Assembly: GCA_964649715.1 (NCBI GenBank)
Contig: CAZYTH010000005.1
Span: 1,765 to 65,764, forward strand
Length of the DNA stretch: 64,000 nucleotides
Origin: an uncultured Candidatus Saccharibacteria bacterium
GTDB taxonomy: Bacteria; Patescibacteriota; Minisyncoccia; Phycocordibacterales; UBA12445
Direction of reading: 5' to 3'
In this document: positions 3,659-24,181 of the stretch, one piece after another
Layout of the letters: every line of letters begins with the position of its first letter
Numbering within the stretch: position 1 is the first letter of the stretch
The notes under the pieces: model-generated
Seen by the model: the letters and a program-made list of their open reading frames with translations, nothing else
What the model was told of the DNA's origin: nothing
Database searches by the model: none
Program-made: the position numbers and the translations under genes

Positions 3659-6600
3659 TTATTTATATTCTCTTAGCCAGAAATGTTCATCTTTTATTTT
3701 AATCAAAACTTTTGATGCCCCCTCTGGTCTTAAAAAAGAAAGTGATGAATTTGAACCACTCTGTTGTTTAACCAAAAAGAAACCAATTGCATCTCCTTTA
3801 GAAAAAAGCAAATCATTTATCTTTCCATCATTACGCATACTAAAAGATATTAAGGTATCTGATTTCTCCATGCCAGGGGTATATCTATGTATTTTTGGCA
3901 ATGATTCAAATGTGCCATCACCTTTATTTAAATAAATAATAAGATAACCACGATTACATAATAAGACAATGTCCTTTTTGCCATCATTATTATAATCAAT
4001 TGTAGCGGAACCCAAAATATCTAGAACTAAATCGTCTATATACCTCGTTCCATAATCTTTTCTTTCCTCAAATTCACCGTTGTTTTTTCCTAAGAAAATA
4101 CTAAAAACAGGAGATTGGTAGTCATAATAGACCCCGTTACTTAAACCAGCAGAATATGACGCTACAGCTAAATCAGAAATTCCATCATTGTTAAAATCGG
4201 CAATGATTGGTTTTCCTGGATAAGGTAGCGTGTAATATGTATTTTTCTTTTCTAATTCACCATCTTCATTTCCGAGCATTATTGCAATCGTACTTGTATT
4301 AAAATCAGAAGCAACAACATCACCAAATGTATCATTATTTATTTTGCCCGCTGTTAAGTATGCTTGTGCGACAGAATTGGTTGAGAATTGTTCGTCAAAA
4401 TTTGGATTTCCGTCATTTTTCAAACCGCCATTTTTCAAAACAGTAATTCCTGGAGTCCCCGCCACGATATCAATCTTTCCATCTCCATTTATATCAATAA
4501 TATCCAAATATTGGAAATAAGGAGAGTCTGTTCCAAAATAGATAGGCTGTTTAAATGTATTATCACCCTTGTTCATAACAACCGAAACATTTCTGTCATC
4601 ACCGACAGCAACTATATCAGCCTTTCCGTCACCGTCCAAATCCCCTATTTTTACTTTGCGTAGTCTCCATCCAACTGAAAATTCAGATACATTGTATTTA
4701 AAACCATCGATATTTTCAGTCCCATTTTGATTACTCAAAAAAACAGAAATTGAGGAAGCCTTCTTATTTGCTGTCACAAAATCAGGTATGCTGTCATTGT
4801 TGAAATCATAAATATCAATACCCCATGTTTCAACATCAGTACCATTGCTTCTAATTAATTGTTTAAGTTCTTTATAGTCTAAAGAGCTAGTCGTTTCGCT
4901 ATTTGCCTTAATCAAAGAGACACCATACATAACAACATTATTACCTTCTTTTTTTGTCATTCGAAGCGGAGATGTAAGGACACCCTTTGGATCAAAAGCT
5001 ATCTTTATTTCTTTATCATCATGCTTAACACGAAATCCGATATCAACAAAATCGACAAAAGGCAAACTACAATCTTTTGTTCCTGTCATTAGTTTTGTTT
5101 TTTCACAATTGCTCGTTTGGGTAAAAGTTTCTGTGGTGCATTTTGTTGCAGGATCAGGAGTCCATGTTGTATCAACACAATCCCCAACATTCACGGTCAC
5201 GCTCTTTGAATCACTTCCCCCGGGACCTTCACAAGACAGTGTGAAGGTTTTGCTTTCTCTTAAGCTTCCTGTGGACTGAGAAGAGTCAAGGGTTCCTAAT
5301 GTTCCAGGAGCTAAAGTACCCGACCAACCAGTACCACTTCTTGTACAAGATGTGGCGTTTTTGGCGGTGTATCTGATTGTTGTGGCTGTGTTGTAATCAA
5401 CAAAACCGTGACCAACCGTCAGAGTGACTTCTGGTGGTTTTATGCTTACAGTTTTTGAATCTTCTACTTTTGCACCATTTATTCCAATACATTCAACCTT
5501 GTATGTTTTTGAGGTGGTGAGGTTGCCAGTAGAGAAACTTGATAAACTTGTGTAGCTACTTGACCAATCCCCTGACCAATCCCCAAGTCTCCTACAAGAA
5601 ATAACGTTTGTTGTCGTGTATGTTAGTGTTGCTGGCGTATTATAATCAACGAGTTCTTTGTCGACTGTGAAGTTTAAAGTTGGTGAATCTAAAGGCAAAC
5701 TACAATCTTTTGTTCCACTAATACCTGTTCTAGTCGAACCACACTCTGTACCCGTTTGGGTGAAAGTTTCTGTAGTGCATCTTGTTGCAGGGTCAGGAGT
5801 CCATGTTGTATCAACACAAGCCCCGACATTCACGGTCACGCTCTTTGAATCACTTCCCCCGGGACCTTCACAAGACAGTGTGAAGGTTTTGCTTTCTCTT
5901 AAGCTTCCTGTGGACTGAGAAGAGTCAAGGGTTCCTAATGTTCCAGGAGCTAAAGTACCCGACCAACCAGTACCACTTCTTGTACAAGATGTGGCGTTTT
6001 TGGCGGTGTATCTGATTGTTGTGGCTGTGTTGTAATCAACAAAACCGTGACCAACCGTCAGAGTGACTTCTGGTGGTTTTATGCTTACAGTTTTTGAATC
6101 TTCTACTTTTGCACCATTTATTCCAATACATTCAACCTTGTATGTTTTTGAGGTAAAAAGATTACCAGTAGGGAAACCTGATGCACTTGTGTAACTACCT
6201 GACCAATCCCCAAGTCTCCTACAAGAAGTAACGTTTGTTGTCGTGTATGTTAATTTTGTTGATGTATTGTAATCGACTGAATCGTTCTCGACTATGAAAT
6301 TTAGAGTTGGGGCTCCTGGTTCTGCAACAGAAACAACTACCTCTTTTTCAACATCACTACCTCCTGGGCCAGAACAATTCAGTCTGTAGGTTTTGCTTTC
6401 TGTTAAGCTTCCTGTGTCCCAAGAAGAGCTAAGTGCCCCTGATGATGCATTAGGAGGTAACGAGCCACTCCAATCTCCGCTTTTTGTACAGGATGTTGCG
6501 TTTTTAGCTGTATATTTAAGATTGGTTTTTTCTCCATAATTAAGATTTTGTTTAGTAGCCTCTAATGTAACAACTGGAGGGTTTATACCTATTATTACGT

Positions 6601-14441: not shown

Positions 14442-15848
14442 TTGACACTCGCCACCAGCAAAGATAGGATAAAAAGAAATAGTTATTTGAAAATACTGAC
14501 AAACATCGAAAAGGAGGTTTTTGTGGATAACTGGTTAGAATTGGATTACAAAAGTCCAAGCGCTGAGGAAATCTTTTGCATAAAATTTTTTGACAGATTT
14601 ATTATTGGTCAACAAAGAGCGAAAGAAAAAATCGCTTCAAATTTAGCCACATGGAAACATGGACTTTCAGACAAAGACAAACCTGCTTCAATTCTCCTTC
14701 TTCCAGGACCTTCTGGCGTCGGAAAAACATATCTTGTCCGTGTCTTTGCAAAACTTCTTATCGGAGATATGAACGCCTTCACCAGAATAGACTGCTCAAA
14801 TCTTCAAGAAAGTCACACCATCTCTCGTCTCCTTGGTTCCCCTCCCGGATATGTTGGATACAGTGAGGAATCCGAGATTTCTCAAGAGAAACTTGACCGC
14901 CACTATGAAGACAGGCATCCACAAAAACCAACAGCGGAAGAAAAAAGAAAACTAGAAGAATTAAACGACAAACTTTTTGAGCTTGCTCAAGAAGTTGACG
15001 ATCTTCAGTTTAAACTCTCCGAAGAAAAAGATGTAATAAAAAAAAATGAGCTTTCCAAGCGGATAAAGGCTAAACAGAGAGAATTCTTAGATATTCACAA
15101 AAAGCAAGAAGAATTTATCAAAAGATCCGAAAAAAACAAAGCAAGATGTCCTTCTATCCTTCTATTCGACGAGATTGAAAAGATTCATCCAGCGATCACA
15201 AGAGCCCTGCTTCCTATCTTTGATACAGGTGAAACAAAACTTGCGAATGGGAAAATAGTTAACTTTAGGAATTGTTTCATCTTTATGACCTCCAATATCG
15301 GAGCAAGAAAACTTGCCGACATGCAAAGGGGCAAAGGAAAGATAGGAATCTTCACAGAAACAACTCAAAAAGAAAAAGAAGAAGATAAAAACATCTACCA
15401 AACGGTAATCGAAGAAATTACTCACTCCGAACACTTCCCGACAGAGCTTATTGGACGAATTGGCAAAGAGAATATTGTGATATTCCATTCTCTAAAAGAA
15501 TCTGGAATCAGAAATATCATTGAGCTTCAGATAAAAGAGATGGAGAGAAAAATTCAAATTGCCTCTCCCGGAACAAAGCTAATTTTTTCTCAACCATTAA
15601 AAGATTTTCTTTTTACAGAAACACAAGATCCCGTGAACAAAGCCCTCGGAGCCAGACCTATTGAAAATGTGATTAAGTCAAAGATACTAAATCCTCTAAT
15701 GAATCTGATTATTAAAGGTGAAGAAGGCGGAATCATTCCCGGAGACATAATAAAAATTGATATAAAAGAATTCACGAAAAACGGAGCAAAAAAGAGTAAG
15801 GTCGTTATTGAAAAAGTAAAAGATCAAAATAGAATTGACATCATTTGA
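14442..15848 (+). CDS. Stand-alone AAA+ ATPase related to the ClpA/ClpB second nucleotide-binding domain (D2), with an inserted coiled coil of about 85 aa
   Basis: IIGQQRAKEKIASNLATWKHGLSDKDKPASILLLPGPSGVGKTYL and LLGSPPGYVGYSEE match Clp D2. Walker B ILLFDEIEK lies about 100 residues later, versus about 17 in ClpB. Sensor region FMTSNIGA and C-terminal IGRIGKENIVIFHSL are conserved. TTG start per ORF track. Confidence 0.7.
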   Translation: MTLATSKDRIKRNSYLKILTNIEKEVFVDNWLELDYKSPSAEEIFCIKFFDRFIIGQQRAKEKIASNLATWKHGLSDKDKPASILLLPGPSGVGKTYLVRVFAKLLIGDMNAFTRIDCSNLQESHTISRLLGSPPGYVGYSEESEISQEKLDRHYEDRHPQKPTAEEKRKLEELNDKLFELAQEVDDLQFKLSEEKDVIKKNELSKRIKAKQREFLDIHKKQEEFIKRSEKNKARCPSILLFDEIEKIHPAITRALLPIFDTGETKLANGKIVNFRNCFIFMTSNIGARKLADMQRGKGKIGIFTETTQKEKEEDKNIYQTVIEEITHSEHFPTELIGRIGKENIVIFHSLKESGIRNIIELQIKEMERKIQIASPGTKLIFSQPLKDFLFTETQDPVNKALGARPIENVIKSKILNPLMNLIIKGEEGGIIPGDIIKIDIKEFTKNGAKKSKVVIEKVKDQNRIDII

Positions 15849-15851
15849 TGG

Positions 15852-15882
15852 CAAAAAGGAGACCAAAAGGTCTCCTTTTTTT
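15852..15882 (+). terminator. Rho-independent terminator (ggagacc-aaaa-ggtctcc plus T7)
   Basis: Perfect 7 bp stem and T-run directly after the AAA+ gene stop. Confidence 0.7.
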
Positions 15883-15966
15883 AATGCGTCCACCATCAAA
15901 GTCATTAGGTAAACTCAATCCAATTAAATAATCAAATCTTAAACCAAGAAGTAAATTTGGATATTT

Positions 15967-17490
15967 TTATTCTGTATATCTTATTCTTTTTTTGAGCTTC
16001 TCAAATAGCACATTTATTTTGACCTGAAAATATCTTTTTTCTTTTTCATAATCTGGATTGGTCTTCCTGTTTTCGTCTAGAATAAGATTATCCCCTAAAA
16101 TTTTTTCTATTTCAGACAATCTCCACAATAGTCTATAAATATTATCAATCTTTTTATTTAATTCCCTTTTTTTATTAATAGAAATTTCAGATAAATCGCT
16201 GTCCTTCAATTCCGCTTTCTGTGCTTTTAATTCTTCTAATGAATTACTTAGTCGTTCCCTTGGGTTTAGTGAATTAACCTCTTGCGCAATCTGTTCTATT
16301 GATAAATAATTCTGTTCTATCGATCCATTTTCCAAGGACTCTTGAATCCTTCTTTCTGTTTCCATGGTAATTTTATCCTTTTTGGTGGCGACGTCCTCTT
16401 GTTTGGGTGTTTCTTTCTTGTTTAGTTTTTTGCAATATTCTTCAATTTTTTCCGATGAGATGAGTTCTCTTAATACCCCTCTTATTATTCTTTTTTTCAT
16501 GTCAAAATTATCTGCTTCCGGACCTCCTGGAGGCATTCCCGCATTGACCCAATCTTTATATCTAGCCATCAAGTGACGCAGAGGTATTATGACCAAAACA
16601 AGATCGTCCACTTTTTTCTCTAAAGTAAGCGACATTTTCTGTTTGGACATTTCTGTTTGTTTGCCCTTTTTCTCCCCTACATCTTTGTTGGTATTTATCG
16701 TAAATTGTATACCTGTGCTTTTGGAATCAGATTCGACGTCAACTCCTCTTAGCCTATTTTTTGTTTCTACAATAAAATCTATTTTATATTCAACATCCTC
16801 AAAAAAATCTACATCTTTTACATCAAATTCCGCTTCATGATCGATTTCCAACTTCTTTAAAATTGTTTTAACAAGTTTTTCGGCTACAAATCCGCCTCTC
16901 TCTAGACTTTCTTTTTTATTTTCAGGTAGCCTTGTTCCGTATGCTTGCTTTTTTCCTTCATCAGTAAATCCGCTGCTGTGTTCGTTTATCGCTATTTGTT
17001 CGTCCAATAATTCTCCGATTAGAGACGAAGTTCTTTCTACGATATATCTCTTTCTTACATCGCGTGGAACAGTAAGAGGATCGAGATTATAATCATTGCC
17101 CCAATCATAATCTGTAAAAATTGTACCCAGAGTTACTCTTATGTCACCCACAAAATAAAAGTCTCCTTCTTTTTTAACATTTCGAACGTTTCTGCCCTCA
17201 ACCTCTTCTATTTCTACCAACTCATTGTTGTCTATTTTTCTAAGATTTTCCCTGAGACCTTTCATTATCTCTAATTTTTTTTCTTGAATCTCATATATTT
17301 CTGTCTGTTTTTCCGGGGTATTCAAAAAATACTCAGATCTGCTTTCGATGAGTTTAATTTTGTCTCTCAGTATCTCCGGGTCTTTCTCTCTAAATTCACC
17401 TTTTATATTTTTGCCATAATCTCTTAGAGCTATTTTTTCAAAAAATTCTCTCATATTTTTTATTAAATTTTTATTGTTATACTTTAGCAA
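15967..17490 (-). CDS. Hypothetical coiled-coil protein (507 aa)
   Basis: Long ORF with coherent, charged, Lys/Glu-rich composition and heptad-like segments. No recognisable catalytic motif. Confidence 0.45.
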   Translation of the reverse strand: MLKYNNKNLIKNMREFFEKIALRDYGKNIKGEFREKDPEILRDKIKLIESRSEYFLNTPEKQTEIYEIQEKKLEIMKGLRENLRKIDNNELVEIEEVEGRNVRNVKKEGDFYFVGDIRVTLGTIFTDYDWGNDYNLDPLTVPRDVRKRYIVERTSSLIGELLDEQIAINEHSSGFTDEGKKQAYGTRLPENKKESLERGGFVAEKLVKTILKKLEIDHEAEFDVKDVDFFEDVEYKIDFIVETKNRLRGVDVESDSKSTGIQFTINTNKDVGEKKGKQTEMSKQKMSLTLEKKVDDLVLVIIPLRHLMARYKDWVNAGMPPGGPEADNFDMKKRIIRGVLRELISSEKIEEYCKKLNKKETPKQEDVATKKDKITMETERRIQESLENGSIEQNYLSIEQIAQEVNSLNPRERLSNSLEELKAQKAELKDSDLSEISINKKRELNKKIDNIYRLLWRLSEIEKILGDNLILDENRKTNPDYEKEKRYFQVKINVLFEKLKKRIRYTE

Positions 17491-17650
17491 AAATAACTAA
17501 ATTTATAAATAAATTTAAAAAACACCCACAATTAAAATTTCAATATTATCTCCTGCGAGAAAGAATTTTTAAGCCCAGCAGAATTATTCCAATATATGGA
17601 CAGTCCAATCGTCGGATCCACCTTGGGTGGATACTCAGTCTGGTTTCGAA

Positions 17651-17690
17651 CTGCCTCTACCTATTGGTAGACAGGTTCCGGCAGGCAGGC
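17651..17690. repeat. Shorter copy of the composite palindromic element (ctgcctctacctattggtagacagg ... ggcaggcaggc)
   Basis: Aligns with 2535-2595. Preceded by a tRNA T-arm-like ggtttcgaact segment. Confidence 0.5.
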
Positions 17691-17727
17691 TAACGAAAGC
17701 TATGGGTAATGGCTTTCTCTGGGCAGA

Positions 17728-17752
17728 CAAAAATCCGCTCATCGCGGATTGT
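17728..17752 (-). terminator. Hairpin aatccgc-tcatc-gcggatt directly downstream of the tRNA-Lys 3' end
   Basis: 7 bp stem followed by a short T-run on the minus strand. Probable tRNA transcript terminator or processing hairpin. Confidence 0.35.
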
Positions 17753-17755
17753 TTG

Positions 17756-17828
17756 TGCGCCCAGCAGGATTCGAACCTGCGACCATTTGCTTAAAAGGCA
17801 ACTGCTCTACCAACTGAGCTATGGGCGC
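17756..17828 (-). tRNA. tRNA-Lys (anticodon UUU)
   Basis: Reverse complement GCGCCCATAGCTCAGTTGGTAGAGCAGTTGCCTTTTAAGCAAATGGTCGCAGGTTCGAATCCTGCTGGGCGCA is near-identical in architecture to E. coli tRNA-Lys. Anticodon loop CTTTTAA. Confidence 0.85.
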
Positions 17829-17891
17829 ATTTAATAACTAATGTGTAAAAAACAATAACAAAATTATCGCTACCTGTCCAATGACAACACG

Positions 17892-17916
17892 ATGAGCGAG
17901 GTTGAACCTCACTCAT
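17892..17916. repeat. REP-like 25 bp imperfect palindrome atgagcgaggttgaacctcactcat overlapping the RAYT stop codon
   Basis: Seen directly. Related copies at 18395-18419 (reverse complement) and 18627-18651 (direct). Confidence 0.7.
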
Positions 17917-18622
17917 CATTTTGTTCCATAATTAAATCTATGTCTCCATCATTCTTATTGTCCCTAATCCAATCTTCCATTTCTTTTTTATACTTCGCTT
18001 CCCCGCCAAGATAACCACTCATCCATTCTCGCGATGTAACAGATGGAAAATTTTTTATTCCTATATAATCTAAATAGCTACTCCATCTATAGTGATTCAA
18101 TTGTTCTATTTTTTCGGATGGCAATCCCTTGGATTTCTTTATGGGGTTATTGTGTATATAAAAAGGCAACCAACCAAAATGAGCTTCTTTTTTTATGTGG
18201 ACCGCCTTAAATCTTCCCTGAAACAAACCCCCCACTCTCTCATATTTTTGATTAAAATACATAGTATATCCAGTCCCCAGTTTCTGCATAAATTTTACGA
18301 TTCCATTCTCTTGTCTTTGTTTCAAAACCAAATGAAAATGATTGGGCATCAATGTAAAAATAATAACATCAACCAACCTTTTTCTATTCTTCACAAATGA
18401 GTGAGGTTCAACCTCGCTCATTGATCTATTATGTTCAATGTCACGACCTAAATTCTGAACTGGGGAATTATTATTAAATTCATAAAGACAGTGAATAAAT
18501 CTAAGATGGTCCTGCTTATCTAAAAAGATGTTTCTTTTTTCTACACCCCTATTATAAATGTGATAGAATTCATCTTCTATAAATTCCGGTTTTTTCTTTG
18601 CCATAAACAAGAATACTATCAT
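17909..18622 (-). mobile_element. REP-associated tyrosine transposase (RAYT; IS200-like Y1 HUH transposase)
   Basis: EFYHIYNRGVEKRNIFLD N-terminal motif. HUH motif MPNHFHLVL. Catalytic Tyr region GYTMYFNQKYERVGGLFQGRFK. Bracketed by REP palindromes in the RAYT arrangement. Confidence 0.75.
18395..18419. repeat. REP-like palindrome copy inside the RAYT coding sequence (encodes MSEVEPHS in frame)
   Basis: Exact reverse complement of the 17892-17916 copy. Confidence 0.7.
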
Positions 18623-18626
18623 CCTT

Positions 18627-18651
18627 ATGAGCGAGGTTCAACCTCACTCAT
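18627..18651. repeat. REP-like palindrome copy 5 bp upstream of the RAYT start codon
   Basis: Differs from the 17892-17916 copy only at the central base. Confidence 0.7.
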
Positions 18652-18730
18652 AAAATAGGAAAAGAAAAAAGGCGTTCGGTTTAAAACCGAAACGCCCTGT
18701 GTAGGCTTTCGCCCGATGTGTGTGTGAAGA

Positions 18731-19198
18731 CTACTTCTTCTTCTTGCCGCCCTTACCCTTGTTCTTCTTGTTCTTGCCCCCATCGGAGGAGCCGCCCTTC
18801 CCTTTCTTCTGCTTCGGGGGCTTCACCTTGGGATGCCAAGTGCCGTTGGCCTTCCCCGCTTCGATGCCGGCCCAACGAGCCGGCTTGGCCTTGGACTTTT
18901 TCTTCGACCCAACGCGGGAACGATTCAGGATTGACGGTCGATACTCCTCCTGAATCAAACCCTTGATGTAGGCCGAGTGGATTCGACGAACCTGAAAAGC
19001 CTCCCTTTCCTCGGCGTCGAAAATCGCGCCGTTCTGGACTTCGATGATGTTGCCGAGCGTGAAGTCCTTGTTGACGGTCTGAACCTTCCAGTCTCCTTCA
19101 TTGTCGGGAAGATTGGAGAGATTCTCGAGAATAATCCCGAGACCCTCAAACACCGAGAGGAAAAACTTGATTACCTCACCGACACGGAAGTTCACCAT
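18731..19198 (-). CDS. Hypothetical protein (155 aa) with GC3-rich codon usage and a Lys/Gly-rich C-terminal tail (KKKSKAKPA...KGKGGKKKK)
   Basis: Coherent ORF in a GC-rich segment. Consensus sigma70 promoter and AAAAGGAGGG ribosome-binding site upstream. Basic tail suggests nucleic-acid binding. No family recognised. Confidence 0.55.
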   Translation of the reverse strand: MVNFRVGEVIKFFLSVFEGLGIILENLSNLPDNEGDWKVQTVNKDFTLGNIIEVQNGAIFDAEEREAFQVRRIHSAYIKGLIQEEYRPSILNRSRVGSKKKSKAKPARWAGIEAGKANGTWHPKVKPPKQKKGKGGSSDGGKNKKNKGKGGKKKK

Positions 19199-19245
19199 AA
19201 AAATAGCCCTCCTTTTAAAATTTTGATGTTCTTAATTCTCTTTTA

Positions 19246-19274
19246 ATTATATACCTTTATTATGAATCTGTCAA
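19246..19274 (-). promoter_or_regulatory. Consensus sigma70 promoter TTGACA-17-TATAAT for the 155 aa gene
   Basis: Minus strand reads ggtggtgTTGACAgattcataataaaggtaTATAATtaaaag, about 45 nt upstream of ribosome-binding site AAAAGGAGGG and the ATG at 19198. Confidence 0.6.
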
Positions 19275-19435
19275 CACCACCAAATAAAATTGTCTAAAAT
19301 ACAGATAATCAACGACTATCATCCCTTTTGTCATTCCCGACTTGATCGGGAATCCAGAAATTGTCTTTGAAACTGGATCCCCGTTTTCACGGGGATGACA
19401 ACTAAAACCGAGTCGCACTAAGAAAAAACATGCAA

Positions 19436-19492
19436 CCCTGATTGGATAAAAATATATTCATCTAAAATGAATATATTTTTATCCAATCAGGG
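19436..19492 (-). terminator. 26 bp perfect inverted repeat with 5 nt loop, followed on the minus strand by ttgcatgtttttt
   Basis: ccctgattggataaaaatatattcat-ctaaa-atgaatatatttttatccaatcaggg. Unusually long stem. Could also be a protein-binding palindrome. Confidence 0.5.
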
Positions 19493-19502
19493 TAAAGAAA
19501 AA

Positions 19503-19529
19503 GGCGCTGAAGCTTGAGAGCTTAGCGCC
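19503..19529 (-). terminator. Rho-independent terminator (ggcgctaagctc-tcaa-gcttcagcgcc plus TTTTTCTTT) after the 292 aa gene
   Basis: Hairpin plus T-run on the minus strand, 50 nt after the stop at 19581. A smaller hairpin ggagatg-gac-atctcc (19540-19560) precedes it. Confidence 0.55.
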
Positions 19530-19580
19530 TGAAATGGACATTTTGTTGATGGAGATGTCCATCTCCGATTCTGCACTAGG

Positions 19581-20459
19581 TTACTTCTTGTTGGTCGGGC
19601 GGAGTTTGGATAGAAGGTTGGCAACCACCGGAACCTTCTCGATCTGTGCCCTGAATCCCTCATCCATCCACTTGAAGTGAGCGAACAGGAATCCGCCGTT
19701 ACCGTTCTGATTCTTGCGCCGTTCCAAGATCGGAACATCGCGCTCGAGACCGAGCTCCACCTTGCCTTCAACGAGCTGAAGAGTCCGGACCTTGGCCCAG
19801 ATCTCCCCATCGAAGCCTGACTTGGTGGAGATTACCGCACAGGGGCCCGCCGACCCGTGGATGTGGAGTTCTCCCCGAATGACACGAGGCCAGTCGAAGA
19901 TTTCCTTTCCGTCGGCGAGTTTCTTCTTCTTGGTGAAGCCACGGGAACCCCATTGCCAGCGAGCCTCGGAGATGGGCAGGGTGATCAGGATCTCGGAGAT
20001 CCGCTTGGCCAACTTCAGCTTAAGCTGGTCAGCGACGGCCTTGGGCAGGATCCGGAATTCGCTACGGGAAAGACTGACCGGAACGCCCTCGGAGGTCTCG
20101 GCCTCCATCTGACCATCGGCCTTGACCGAGATCAAGACCAGGTGACCGCACTTGACCGCAGCACCGACATAGCCGGACCGCGGATCGATGGGGGGCAGCT
20201 CCTTCAGAGTGCCGTCTTCCATCTTCTTCTGGCGGCGGATGTTGGCCATGCCGTAGAGACCGTTGAGCTCGAACTGCTCGATCGGGCGAAGGGAGGTCTT
20301 CTGGACCGCCTCCATGACCTGGTCGGTGCCGGCGATCTGAAGATCGACGAGATCTTCGGTTTCCTTGAGGATGAACATGGGCTTGGCGGATGGATCGTCC
20401 TTGAAGGCGACCCATTCCAACACGAACCGTGGTCTGCTGTTCTGATTCTTGTTCTCCAT
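19581..20459 (-). CDS. Hypothetical protein (292 aa) with GC3-rich codon usage
   Basis: Long ORF with protein-like composition. Opposite-strand ORFs are Asp/Gly/Leu-rich antisense artefacts. Ribosome-binding site AAAGGAGGG lies 8 nt before the ATG. No family recognised. Confidence 0.55.
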   Translation of the reverse strand: MENKNQNSRPRFVLEWVAFKDDPSAKPMFILKETEDLVDLQIAGTDQVMEAVQKTSLRPIEQFELNGLYGMANIRRQKKMEDGTLKELPPIDPRSGYVGAAVKCGHLVLISVKADGQMEAETSEGVPVSLSRSEFRILPKAVADQLKLKLAKRISEILITLPISEARWQWGSRGFTKKKKLADGKEIFDWPRVIRGELHIHGSAGPCAVISTKSGFDGEIWAKVRTLQLVEGKVELGLERDVPILERRKNQNGNGGFLFAHFKWMDEGFRAQIEKVPVVANLLSKLRPTNKK

Positions 20460-20763
20460 AACAATTGCCCTCCTTTGGGCTTCGAAATTCAGAATGTACC
20501 CTTTCGCTAAACTACCTCTTCCTCCAAAGAAGATTTGATTAAGCGAAGGACACGCGCACGGCCGGGTGAAATTCCACGGCCAATTTTTAGAACAGTTTCC
20601 CTTCCTCCTTTTTCATTTAACATAGAATTGACATCGCTTTCCTTGTGACGGAATTTCTCCCGCCCAAGATGGCAGTGCCGAGTCCGGATGTTGTTGTTGA
20701 CTTAATCCACCTCCTTCTTTTTGAAATAACCTTTATTGCAATGAACAAACTTGATTTTGGTTT

Positions 20764-21745: not shown

Positions 21746-24181
21746 TTAGCTTTCAACTTCTTTTAAATCTCCCCAGTTGTCCCCTACCGAAGCATCCACA
21801 AGTAACGGTAAATTAATTGAAACAGCATTTTCCATTGCGTGCTTTATCAAAGCAACGTTGTTGTTCAAGTGCTCGTCATCCTTAACCTCAAAAAGGAGCT
21901 CATCATGGACCTGAAGCAATAAGTGAACGCTGTCTTTTAACTTTTTCTCCTCAAGTTTTTTGTCCACATGAGAGATGGCGAGCTTGATTATATCACCCGT
22001 CGCACTCCCCTGAATAGGTGCATTCATAGCCATTCTCTCCGCCTCGCTTCTGATATATGGCAAGTGCGAATTAATCTCGGGAAAATATCTTCGCCTCCCA
22101 AAGTAGGTGGTTGTATAACCCCGACTTCTTGCCTCCGATTTAATTCTTTCAAAATATTCACGAACTCTTGGAAATTTATTGAAATATTCGTTGTAAAATT
22201 TCTCAGCCTCCTCTGTGGTGGTTCCAAGATTTTTCTTTAATGCCCTAACACCCATCCCGTATATAATACCAAAATTTATAACTTTGGCCTGCCTCCTCAT
22301 TTCTTTTGTGACGTCGCCCTCCGCAACACCAAATACTTTCGAAGCCACGCTTGCATGAATGTCTTTTCCATCCCTGAACGTCTGAATAAGCACCTCGTCC
22401 TCAGTGAGCCAGGCAAGAACCCTCATCTCTATTTGAGAATAGTCAAAAGCGCATATTTTATAACCTTTGGACGAGATAAATGCACGTCTCACCTCAGAAC
22501 CAAACTCTCCTCTCGCCGGAATGTTTTGCAAATTCGGATCGGTTGAAGACATTCTTCCTGTGGTTGTTCCCGTCTGATTTAAATGTGTATGAAGACGGCC
22601 ATTCTCGTCGACTTTTTCGGGGAGATTGTCTACATAAGTTGAAAGCAATTTTTGAAGGCCCCTATATTCAAGGATATCGGCAATTATCGGATGAACATCT
22701 TTTAGTTTTTCAAGCTCTGACTCTCTCGTCGATATCGAACCGCCTGCCGTTTTTTTTATTCCCTTTTTTGACAAAGCCATCTTTACAAAAAGTATTTCCC
22801 CTAACTGTTTTGGTGAATTTATGTTAAATTCCACACCTGCGTGCTTCCATATCTTAGCTTCGTAATCTGAAAGTCTCTTGTGATAGTCAACCGAAATATC
22901 TTTCAAATATTTTGTATCAAGAAGTATCCCTCTGTTTTCCGCATCTTCAATTATTTTTATTAAAGGTAACTCTATTTCATCATAAACCCTCCCAAGTCCA
23001 TCCTCTTTCATCCTTTCCAACAGTTTCTTTTCAACAACGTCAAAATCCTTACTGTCGGCAAATACATAGAGGTCTTCTGTCTTCGGATCGGTCTTGCTTG
23101 AGTCTATGAGCCAAAGAGCAATAAAGGCTTTTTTGAGACGAATGGGGTTTATTTCTATTTCATTTATATCTGAATTCACAGTTTCTGTGTTAGAACTCTC
23201 ACTTGGACTCCCGGAGTCCAAGTGATCAAACTTGCCAAGAAGCTCGTCCAAACGGCCAGGCAAAGTGCGGAACTCAAGATCAGTAAATATCTGTTTTGCA
23301 CTAGATACAACGAGAGACTCTTTCCATGTTTTTTGGGGTATTTCAAAATCTAAAGGCACGTCTCTTTTTATGGTCGCAAGTTTTTTTGAAAAAAATGCTT
23401 CTTCTTCACCATTTTTTAAGAGTTCTATCATTCGGGTCTTTATTCCAGCCTGCTCAAATTTTTTCTCACCATCTTTTTTGTTCAGAATCTCATAAATATT
23501 TTCAATAGTTCCAAAACTTTTTATAAGATTCTCAGCAGTTTTTTCTCCTATTCCCTTTATGCCGATAATATTATCCGACGGATCACCACGAAGACCCTTG
23601 AAATCACTCATGTATTTCGGAGAAAAACCGTACCTCTCCTCTATTCCCTTTTCGTCGTAAATAATTGTATCTTTTATTCCTTTATGAAGTGTATAGACAA
23701 CAACTTCATCATCTTCAATAAGTTGAGTGGTATCCAAGTCTCCGGAAGCGATAACAATCTGCACCTTACCACCATCAACCTTCATGTCTTTTACGTTCTC
23801 AGCAATCGTACCAATAAGATCGTCTGCCTCAAAACCCTCTTTCTCGTAATAAGGAATATTAAAAGCTTTAAATACTTCTCTTGATCTAATTATTTGCTCT
23901 ATAAGTGCGTCATCGGTCTTTTTTCTTCCAGCTTTATATCCATCGTACATTTCTTTTCTAAATGTAGGCTTGGGAAGATCGTAACAAGCTATAATATAAT
24001 CCGGTTTAAGATCACCGATAATCTTTATAATCATTAAAGACAACCCATAAAGCGCACCAGTGGGTTCACCTTTTGAAGTCGTAAAATCAGGAAGAGCGTG
24101 GTATGCACGATGAAGTATGGCATGAACATCCAACAACACCAGACGTTTCTTGTATTGTTTTTTAATTACCTTATGTTCCAT
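21746..24181 (-). CDS. polA: DNA polymerase I
   Basis: N-terminal 5'-3' exonuclease motifs (LLDVHAILHRAYHAL, GIKGIGEKTA). Polymerase motifs RRQAKVINFGIIYGMG and LLQVHDELLFEV. Confidence 0.9.
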   Translation of the reverse strand: MEHKVIKKQYKKRLVLLDVHAILHRAYHALPDFTTSKGEPTGALYGLSLMIIKIIGDLKPDYIIACYDLPKPTFRKEMYDGYKAGRKKTDDALIEQIIRSREVFKAFNIPYYEKEGFEADDLIGTIAENVKDMKVDGGKVQIVIASGDLDTTQLIEDDEVVVYTLHKGIKDTIIYDEKGIEERYGFSPKYMSDFKGLRGDPSDNIIGIKGIGEKTAENLIKSFGTIENIYEILNKKDGEKKFEQAGIKTRMIELLKNGEEEAFFSKKLATIKRDVPLDFEIPQKTWKESLVVSSAKQIFTDLEFRTLPGRLDELLGKFDHLDSGSPSESSNTETVNSDINEIEINPIRLKKAFIALWLIDSSKTDPKTEDLYVFADSKDFDVVEKKLLERMKEDGLGRVYDEIELPLIKIIEDAENRGILLDTKYLKDISVDYHKRLSDYEAKIWKHAGVEFNINSPKQLGEILFVKMALSKKGIKKTAGGSISTRESELEKLKDVHPIIADILEYRGLQKLLSTYVDNLPEKVDENGRLHTHLNQTGTTTGRMSSTDPNLQNIPARGEFGSEVRRAFISSKGYKICAFDYSQIEMRVLAWLTEDEVLIQTFRDGKDIHASVASKVFGVAEGDVTKEMRRQAKVINFGIIYGMGVRALKKNLGTTTEEAEKFYNEYFNKFPRVREYFERIKSEARSRGYTTTYFGRRRYFPEINSHLPYIRSEAERMAMNAPIQGSATGDIIKLAISHVDKKLEEKKLKDSVHLLLQVHDELLFEVKDDEHLNNNVALIKHAMENAVSINLPLLVDASVGDNWGDLKEVES

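Follow-up and report, generated by a model that had tools for sequence, protein, structure and literature searches.

The DNA considered here, a stretch of 64,000 nucleotides (64 kb; the window) from an uncultured Candidatus Saccharibacteria bacterium (contig CAZYTH010000005.1), carries on its minus strand a gene for a Y1/HUH single-stranded DNA (ssDNA) transposase-like protein (17909–18622, 237 amino acids (aa) from the first ATG), and with it three copies of a near-perfect 25-nt palindrome, ATGAGYGAGGTTSAACCTCRCTCAT. An earlier note, made from the sequence alone, had described the gene as a REP-associated tyrosine transposase (RAYT) flanked by two repetitive extragenic palindromes (REPs), with a third copy translated in frame as MSEVEPHS. 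A pattern search confirmed this layout: exact matches to the palindrome occur three times in the 64 kb, at 17892–17916, 18397–18421 and 18627–18651, and all of them belong to this single open reading frame (ORF), against a chance expectation of zero (no match in 100 out of 100 dinucleotide-preserving shuffles). Beyond the three, no degenerate copy of the 13-nt core was found in the window with up to two mismatches allowed. The repeat unit as a whole, (A)ATGAGYGAGGTTSAACCTCRCTCAT(T), contains neither GTAG nor GTGG.

The upstream copy (18627–18651; gene-sense sequence ATGAGTGAGGTTGAACCTCGCTCAT) precedes the ATG as the earlier note had stated, albeit at 4 nt rather than 5 nt from the first in-frame ATG (18622). 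The true distance is probably larger, since every homologue in the alignment begins at the position of M7 (MAKKKPEF, ATG 18604); a start at 18604, the probable one, gives a protein of 231 aa and a gap of 22 nt, which is also the family median for the upstream copy. The downstream copy (17892–17916) contains the TGA stop codon (17909–17911), so that the reported overlap with the stop holds. The internal copy, hereafter INT1 (18397–18421), is read in frame as MSEVEPHS (aa 71–78) between the N-terminal YHIYNRG motif and the HUH motif, and is the exact reverse complement (100%) of the downstream copy. Folded as ssDNA, each of the three copies forms a stem of 12–14 bp with a 3-nt loop, with free energies of −7.5 to −13.2 kcal/mol and z-scores of −3.5 to −7 (upstream copy −10.6 kcal/mol, z −6.95; downstream copy −13.2 kcal/mol, z −6.6). 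A role of the upstream palindrome as a promoter was considered and rejected: its centre TTGAAC and a TAGTAT lying 17 nt downstream agree with the promoter motif at 8 of 12 positions by eye, short of the scanner threshold of 9, and this promoter-like motif is absent from the palindromes of other loci.

The encoded protein is a class-2 TnpAY1, RAYT-like enzyme of the Y1/HUH type. The HUH motif is formed by H95-F-H97 (codons 18340–18332), and the presumed catalytic Tyr155 (codons 18160–18158) lies in the sequence YIHNNP. The protein thus combines HUH and a single Tyr with a Pfam Y1_Tnp (PF01797) score above the gathering cutoff (30.8 bits against 23, residues 82–159 only), as expected of a Y1 endonuclease. 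In the superfamily classification of Quentin, Siguier, Chandler and Fichant (2018; PMC6006769), class 2 is marked by Y---NP and IS200 TnpA by Y---Q; compared with Table 1 of that paper, the YIHNNP of the window protein is of the Y---NP kind. In an alignment with 24 homologues H95, H97, Y155, H157, N159, Y178, W180, S181 and S182 (the last four forming YxWSS) are invariant, and P160 of the Y motif is conserved in at least 90% of the sequences. The score against the NCBIfam RAYT equivalog REP_Tyr_transpos (NF047646) is 36.7 bits, below the cutoff of 80 and confined to residues 80–163, and no PHROGs match was obtained for the gene or its neighbours. The window holds a single copy of the gene, and no tnpB-like ORF adjoins it there.

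In a profile search of PDB sequences ISDra2 TnpA was the only match, a weak one at the HUH strand. The AlphaFold model, with a mean predicted local distance difference test score (pLDDT) of 63.6, finds its best fold match in 4er8_A, the E. coli TnpAREP with REP hairpin (E 6.9e-5, template-modelling (TM) score 0.65 by target), followed by ISDra2 TnpA and IS608 TnpA. The kinship with RAYTs proposed in the earlier note is thus supported by both the class-2 Y---NP motif and the fold. Residues 57–78, which include the palindrome-encoded peptide, have pLDDT values below 50 and are flanked by ordered elements; they are placed between helix 36–48 and strand 84–91, after which the HUH strand 96–102 follows.

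The arrangement is not private to the window. A homologue search returned at least 7,912 proteins with E ≤1e-5 among 8,000 candidates scored, about 230 aa long and, where named, mostly from Patescibacteria. A set of 80 metagenome loci, mostly from Patescibacteria and encoding relatives at 36–58% identity, was sampled, giving 81 loci with the window, and searched for the core GAGGTT(G/C)AACCTC and then de novo for any palindrome. Most loci have a palindrome of their own, near-perfect and 23–39 nt long, the sequences often being very different (e.g. GGAGGCTAAGCCTCC, GAAGTCGGACTTC, GGGAGCTAAGCTCCC, AAGGTTCAACCTT). The copies fall at four sites, located relative to the HUH codon: just before the start (about −300 nt), at the INT1 site used in the window (about −75 nt), just past the Y motif (about +210 nt; INT2), and at or past the stop (about +450 nt). 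The commonest layout, found in 28 of the 81 loci, is that of the window (upstream, INT1 and downstream copies), followed by upstream and downstream copies without an internal one (18 loci); three loci have all four copies, another three have INT2 between the two flanks, and 17 gave no palindrome family. INT2 is absent from the window gene, where the alignment shows a gap at that position.

Counted by site, the upstream copy is present in 59 of the 81 loci, at a median of 22 nt ahead of the start codon, and the downstream copy in 56, beginning at a median of 2 nt past the stop and overlapping the end of the ORF in 16 out of 54. At the INT1 site, 34 of the 81 loci carry a copy of their own palindrome, and among the 120 best protein matches an INT1-type motif was recognized in 39–48 and an INT2-type motif in 92. 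A RAYT carrying its own repeat as coding sequence can therefore hardly be called unusual, as the earlier note did, the more so as there is a precedent in subclass 2.4 (PMC6006769). A private insertion in the window gene is likewise ruled out, as homologues also have the internal copy.

Some loci carry additional repeats. One (L037) has a run of matches to its own palindrome at a 17-nt period, from +487 to +606 relative to the HUH codon, of which the first is close and the others have 4/21 mismatches; another (L014) has three copies of its own palindrome upstream (−391, −346 and −301) at a 45-nt period. Both tandem arrays resemble clusters of the bacterial interspersed mosaic element (BIME) kind. 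A different, perfect 37-nt palindrome, TTGGACGCCAGGCTTCCATTGGAAGCCTGGCGTCCAA, is located at −688 and +1213 from the HUH codon in L054, about 1 kb either side of the unit, and several inverted GGAAGTCCGACTTCC doublets lie downstream in L025, from +899 to +3400. Several palindrome families thus seem to coexist in some genomes.

The internal copies follow the flanks of their own locus. Allowing up to 3/21 mismatches, 33 of 58 loci repeat the palindrome of their flanks within the 130 nt that precede HUH, compared to 53 out of 3306 comparisons (1.6%) for the flank palindromes of other loci and to 1/58 for the own-flank palindrome in a control stretch of the gene. The centre of INT1 falls at codon position 1 in 20 loci, at position 2 in 14 and at position 3 in one, and the peptides encoded at this site are unrelated among loci (EVEP, GGPTS, EAKP, EVGL, RGFAS, DLRN, KEPPY and others). 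Among close homologues the peptide is (M)(S)EV(E/Q)P(R/H/Q), which is the exact coding of the core GAGGTT(G/C)AACCTC. At INT2 the same palindrome is read in another frame and yields the YGGSTSI/YRGSTSI motif (TAT GGA GGT TCA ACC TCA ATA). With G at the centre, this frame would contain a TGA stop; the central base is C in all six INT2 copies with a GAGGTT/GAAGTT-SAAC core (six of the eight loci binned as INT2), and flank copies have G or C freely. The two remaining INT2-binned loci (L064, L065) have an unrelated AT-rich palindrome. Since the frames differ and the peptides are unrelated, the palindrome is conserved as DNA and not as peptide, and conservation at the peptide level is ruled out. 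Moreover, homologues that share the peptide also share the DNA palindrome, which settles in the negative the possibility, raised in the earlier note, of a merely coincidental palindrome.

Comparison of related loci shows turnover. In the close relatives L004, L005 and L008–L010 the flanks are intact, and the sequence at the INT1 site has lost its match to the palindrome and resembles a decayed copy (SMNVEFRS in L009, compared to SMSEVEPHS in the window; ASIENRYLK in L004); the internal copy is consequently dispensable. In more distant subfamilies the loop is short and free of any insertion, and in a rough neighbour-joining tree of the catalytic core both presence and frame are patchy. The centre-to-centre distances between INT1 and INT2 are 292–298 nt and in every case leave a remainder of 1 on division by 3, so that deleting the DNA from one point to its equivalent would shift the frame; in-frame excision between the two sites was rejected on this ground. 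One relative, the 4-kb contig JAQUYY010000195.1, is 97.7% identical to and syntenic with window positions 15231–19251 and has the same three copies. It differs from the window by 12 substitutions in the gene, two of them in INT1 where 0.42 would be expected, a mild excess. A clean inversion of the palindrome between the two is not supported, with two of three flip-sensitive positions differing.

Integration linked to tRNA genes was also considered and rejected. A tRNA-Lys gene lies 63 nt beyond the downstream copy in the window and in L105; among the other 47 loci scanned for tRNA, one is close to the unit in L003 only and some 2 kb off in L041 and L053. The adjacency is not general among loci and was treated as incidental.

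Dispersal was studied by scanning for GAGYGAGGTTSAACCTCRCTC in a collection with one genome per species, in which the window's own genome was not included. The scan returned 24 loci. A Patescibacteria metagenome-assembled genome (MAG), JAHIYV01, holds at least 19 copies of the same 21-nt palindrome on 12 contigs, 18 of them extragenic and some arranged as doublets 29–41 nt apart; the sole genic copy is the INT1 of its own Y1 gene. What is dispersed in this genome is therefore solo palindromes and doublets, not copies of the gene. Because of these at least 18 extragenic copies, the palindrome behaves as a REP-like repeat in at least one genome, and to this extent the REP nature put forward in the earlier note stands. 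It does not extend to the form of the repeat, which is near-perfect and has no canonical GT[AG]G head or asymmetric tag shared by the flanks of the dispersed copies, nor to spread within the window. The same 21-nt palindrome was also seen on contigs binned outside Patescibacteria: one from a Pseudomonas sp. MAG (L085), two from an Omnitrophota MAG (L094 and L104) and one labelled Gastranaerophilales (L081). The last, a 4-kb contig 97.7% identical to the window, seems likely to be mis-binned; mis-binning, chance or transfer could account for the others.

The unit in the window looks quiescent, with no sign of current activity: its three copies are accompanied by none dispersed in the 64 kb and occupy the same place in the 97.7%-identical relative. 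With a hairpin repeat on both sides of the gene (18627–18651 and 17892–17916) it has the organization of a REPtron, although the relative orientation of the flank copies is undecidable because the repeat is an almost perfect palindrome. For Bertels et al. (2017), RAYTs are vertically inherited genes present once per genome, with an abundance of the 16-mers that flank them; the window gene occurs once in 64 kb and is syntenic in the 97.7%-identical relative. Nunvar et al. (2010) describe RAYTs as HUH/Y enzymes always located between two inverted REPs, with a conserved N-terminal Thr and the motif NP(L/V)(R/K)xG. Measured against the last two features, the window protein is not a RAYT in the same sense: its N-terminal YHIYNRGVEKR is without the conserved Thr, and after NP the family reads L/I-x-L-x, without the conserved R/K-x-G.

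Within the scheme of PMC6006769, the protein motifs fit subclass 2.1, the TIRYTs (tyrosine transposases associated with terminal inverted repeats (TIRs)), to judge from a comparison with the published table rather than from a phylogeny: NHFH, LFQGRF, YIHxNP and YRWSS in 231–237 aa, where the subclass has NH[YF]H, FQ, Y[IV]HLNP, a proximal tail containing SS, a median of 238 aa and no REP nearby. The flanking DNA does not fit, being composed of hairpin palindromes without GGGGWSAS. Subclass 2.4 is excluded by FQ in place of WQ, by the C-terminal WSS tail and by insertions that lie before HuH and after Y, and subclass 1.1 of IS200/IS605, with its high copy number and frequent tnpB partner, by Y---NP, the length of 231–237 aa, the single copy in the window and the lack of an adjoining tnpB-like ORF.

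In combination, these observations lead us to favour, with some reservation, an explanation in which the internal copy is a passenger: insertion would be biased to the enzyme's own gene and followed by selection for tolerated in-frame copies. The segment 17892–18651 would then be a compact REPtron-like unit, a class-2 Y1/HUH gene between two cognate hairpin-forming palindromes. If it works as E. coli TnpAREP and IS200/IS605 TnpA do, the enzyme would bind the palindrome folded on ssDNA and then cut and rejoin beside it. The third copy would represent an in-frame insertion of the palindrome into the disordered surface loop ahead of the HUH strand, a position that would leave the catalytic core intact, and MSEVEPHS would be a passenger peptide set by the DNA. 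Across the family, the internal insertion may have arisen in repeated events or be subject to continual renewal. As the most likely cause, the enzyme would act preferentially in cis, beside its own gene, and at existing hairpins; only in-frame, stop-free insertions in two tolerant loops would survive selection.

A number of points weigh against this explanation. The window has no palindrome copies outside the gene unit, which leaves activity in this genome putative, and the palindromes are without the GT[AG]G guide head that an E. coli-type TnpAREP needs. No pair of filled and empty sites could be resolved among the family loci, where divergence is too high. The mismatches in the stems show no G-T over C-A bias on either strand, so that neither the sense RNA nor a particular DNA strand is singled out; an inference of strand or RNA on this basis was ruled out. 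Finally, that the same loop was reached in so many lineages could equally mean that the internal hairpin is functional.

The last point leads to the first of the alternatives, in which the internal hairpin is a functional cis element, bound by the enzyme or a host factor on the mRNA or on DNA made single-stranded by replication or transcription, which throttles expression or marks the gene, with selection keeping the match to the flanks. It could account for the own palindrome in the same loop in 34 of 81 loci despite very different palindromes, for internal copies that are nearly as paired as the flanks (about 1.9 compared to 1.6–1.7 mismatches per 12-nt arm), and for the transposase gene being the only gene hit among at least 19 copies in JAHIYV01. 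However, 18 of the 81 loci have flanks but no internal copy, INT1 looks decayed in several close relatives with intact flanks, and the reading frame varies among lineages. Furthermore, the sense-strand bias of G-T over C-A that an mRNA hairpin would predict is missing, and the differences between INT1 and the flanks are not compensatory. We thus consider a cis element unlikely, if still worth weighing.

Alternatively, the whole upstream–gene–downstream unit of about 760 bp could be an autonomous IS200-like insertion sequence (IS), with the flank hairpins as its ends and the internal copy incidental. The hairpins do hug the ORF in the manner of IS200/IS605 subterminal hairpins, with median distances of 22 nt to the start and 2 nt from the stop, and the fold of the protein is that of IS200/IS605, in line with its Pfam Y1_Tnp match. 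Still, its motif is Y---NP (class 2) and not the Y---Q of TnpAIS200 (PMC6006769), and at about 230 aa with a C-terminal tail it is considerably longer than the roughly 150 aa of IS200 TnpA. Neither does the unit behave as an IS: there is one gene copy in 64 kb, the locus is the same in a relative diverged by 2.3%, and JAHIYV01 disperses solo palindromes and doublets rather than gene copies. An autonomous element of this kind is therefore doubtful, and we rank it below a cis element.

A more elaborate possibility makes the internal hairpins a working part of the system. The enzyme would bind or nick hairpins extruding in its own ORF when single-stranded, as substrate or sensor, and would in this way couple its expression or survival to the REP population, with constant re-copying keeping the internal copies identical to the dispersed ones. 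We regard this as improbable, and as less so only than the last alternative. That the internal palindrome is a coincidence of a conserved EVEP peptide, unrelated at the DNA level to the flanks, can for practical purposes be dismissed: close homologues do have (M)(S)EV(E/Q)P(R/H/Q) in common at the site, but the EVEP-type peptide is exactly encoded by the palindromic core, other palindromes give unrelated peptides in other frames at the same site, the own-flank match of 33/58 loci compares with 1.6% for the flanks of other loci, and the window has three matches where none is expected.

With the passenger reading retained as the favoured one, the closest known parallel is provided by the REPtrons of subclass 2.4 (the group 4 RAYTs of Bertels; Cyanobacteria, Bacteroidetes and others), where in-frame REP insertions in tnpAREP were termed "a remarkable and unique feature" (PMC6006769). 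Both have a class-2 gene, cognate flanking hairpins and frame-preserving internal copies in a peripheral loop, as which the subclass 2.4 insertions were modelled. The site differs, however: the subclass 2.4 insertions generally lie between HuH and Y, whereas those of the Patescibacteria family precede HuH (INT1) or directly follow the Y motif (INT2). The repeats differ as well: subclass 2.4 has REPs that are long and bear a GT[AG]G head or a "double foot", and the family here has near-perfect palindromes of 23–39 nt without a GTAG head. So do the proteins (NH[IFV]H, WQ, YIxNNP and about 194 aa, as opposed to NHFH, FQ, YIHxNP, a WSS tail and about 235 aa). The hosts here are Patescibacteria, which fall outside the sampling of the PMC6006769 survey.

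With the TIRtrons of the TIRYTs (subclass 2.1) the family shares protein length and motif set, by comparison of motif tables and not by phylogeny. In some TIRYTs the gene stands between repeats, at times self-complementary, which form small families as dimers or clusters and may overlap ORF ends (Di Nocera et al. 2013; PMC3733652), a paper that also describes REPs within genes. The difference lies in the repeats, since TIRs are typically GGGGWSAS and those of the window family are hairpin palindromes that tightly flank the gene and occur inside it. The E. coli TnpAREP (RAYT, YafM; 4ER8; Ton-Hoang et al. 2012; Messing et al. 2012) is similar in having HUH and one catalytic Tyr and a gene bracketed by cognate hairpins, but E. 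coli REPs are imperfect and bulged, have a GTAG head and occur in hundreds of copies with none in the gene; about 14% of residues are identical in the fold alignment, and the window protein stays below the NCBIfam RAYT cutoff. TnpAREP enzymes process folded ssREPs in vitro, including perfect palindromes (Corneloup et al. 2021; PMC8266576). The Rickettsia palindromic elements (RPEs; reviewed in Di Nocera et al. 2013) likewise are in-frame palindromes in coding genes that occupy loops or linkers and give passenger peptides. Unlike the window family they are longer, scattered among many genes of unrelated function and independent of any cognate Y1 gene, whereas the genic target preferred by the palindrome of the window family is, in JAHIYV01, the transposase gene itself.

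The surroundings of the unit contain other features of note. A GC-rich module at 18690–20520 (48–50% GC, compared to about 33% around it) adjoins the unit. The earlier note had asked whether REP copies delimit it, and they do not: one abuts the left edge (near 18.65 kb) and none is present at the right edge (20.5–20.9 kb). The module is also found in the 97.7%-identical relative and is thus not an assembly chimera. It holds two minus-strand ORFs, at 18731–19198 (155 aa, with a Lys/Gly-rich tail) and 19581–20459 (292 aa), neither of which has a Pfam, NCBIfam or PHROG match; the 292-aa protein has five matches among 5.8 billion proteins, namely itself and four at 62–65% identity. The two ORFs share a 26-nt ribosome-binding/start region (19190–19215 and 20451–20476, 88% identical). 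In the spacer between them, an AT-rich hairpin of 59 nt, composed of a perfect 27-bp stem closed by a 5-nt loop (19435–19493), occurs once in the window and has only sub-threshold, miRNA-like Rfam matches; apart from tRNA, no known RNA families were found in the window.

Two further palindromes were observed. A perfect one of 27 nt, TCACTTGGACTCCCGGAGTCCAAGTGA, unrelated in sequence to that of the transposase, is located at 23199–23225 within polA (21746–24181, minus strand). Present a single time in the window, it is read in frame as HLDSGSPSE (aa 320–328) within the DNA polymerase I linker. At this site polA homologues at 73–75% identity have an 11-aa gap, and an 81%-identical homologue has a diverged HVDSINLTE. 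The lineage would with TCACTTGGACTCCCGGAGTCCAAGTGA seem to have a second palindrome inserted in frame, this time into a replication gene; Di Nocera et al. (2013; PMC3733652) noted the like for REPs. The polA homologues also place the organism among Patescibacteria of the Parcubacteria/Paceibacteria type. An imperfect palindrome of 22 nt, CCACTTCTTGTACAAGATGTGG, is present in two identical copies 639 nt apart in a region of higher GC (5334–5355 and 5973–5994).

REP/RAYT systems have mainly been studied in Proteobacteria, and the survey of complete genomes in PMC6006769 found class-2 genes enriched in large genomes; text searches of the literature turned up nothing on REP/RAYT systems for Patescibacteria or the candidate phyla radiation (CPR). 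In-frame REPs inside tnpAREP are already known from subclass 2.4 (PMC6006769). The part that appears new is a RAYT-like clade of very large size, with more than 7,900 homologue matches, in the tiny-genome Patescibacteria, which combines motifs resembling subclass 2.1 with two insertion sites, before HuH and after Y. Equally new, it appears, is the close co-variation of internal copies with flanks across dozens of unrelated palindromes.

For annotation, the palindrome accounts for two odd peptide motifs, "EVEP" and "YGGSTSI", that are conserved among these "transposase" entries, the same palindrome giving EVEP in one frame and GGSTS in another. Should the internal hairpins turn out, against our expectation, to be a working part of the system, they would constitute a self-referential control loop, undescribed for any HUH transposase, in thousands of Patescibacteria lineages. 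The lineage-specific palindromes at fixed sites form a natural data set of enzyme–hairpin pairs for the study of Y1/hairpin co-evolution, and can also address how identity of a repeat is maintained among several sites and how a DNA element is accommodated within coding sequence.

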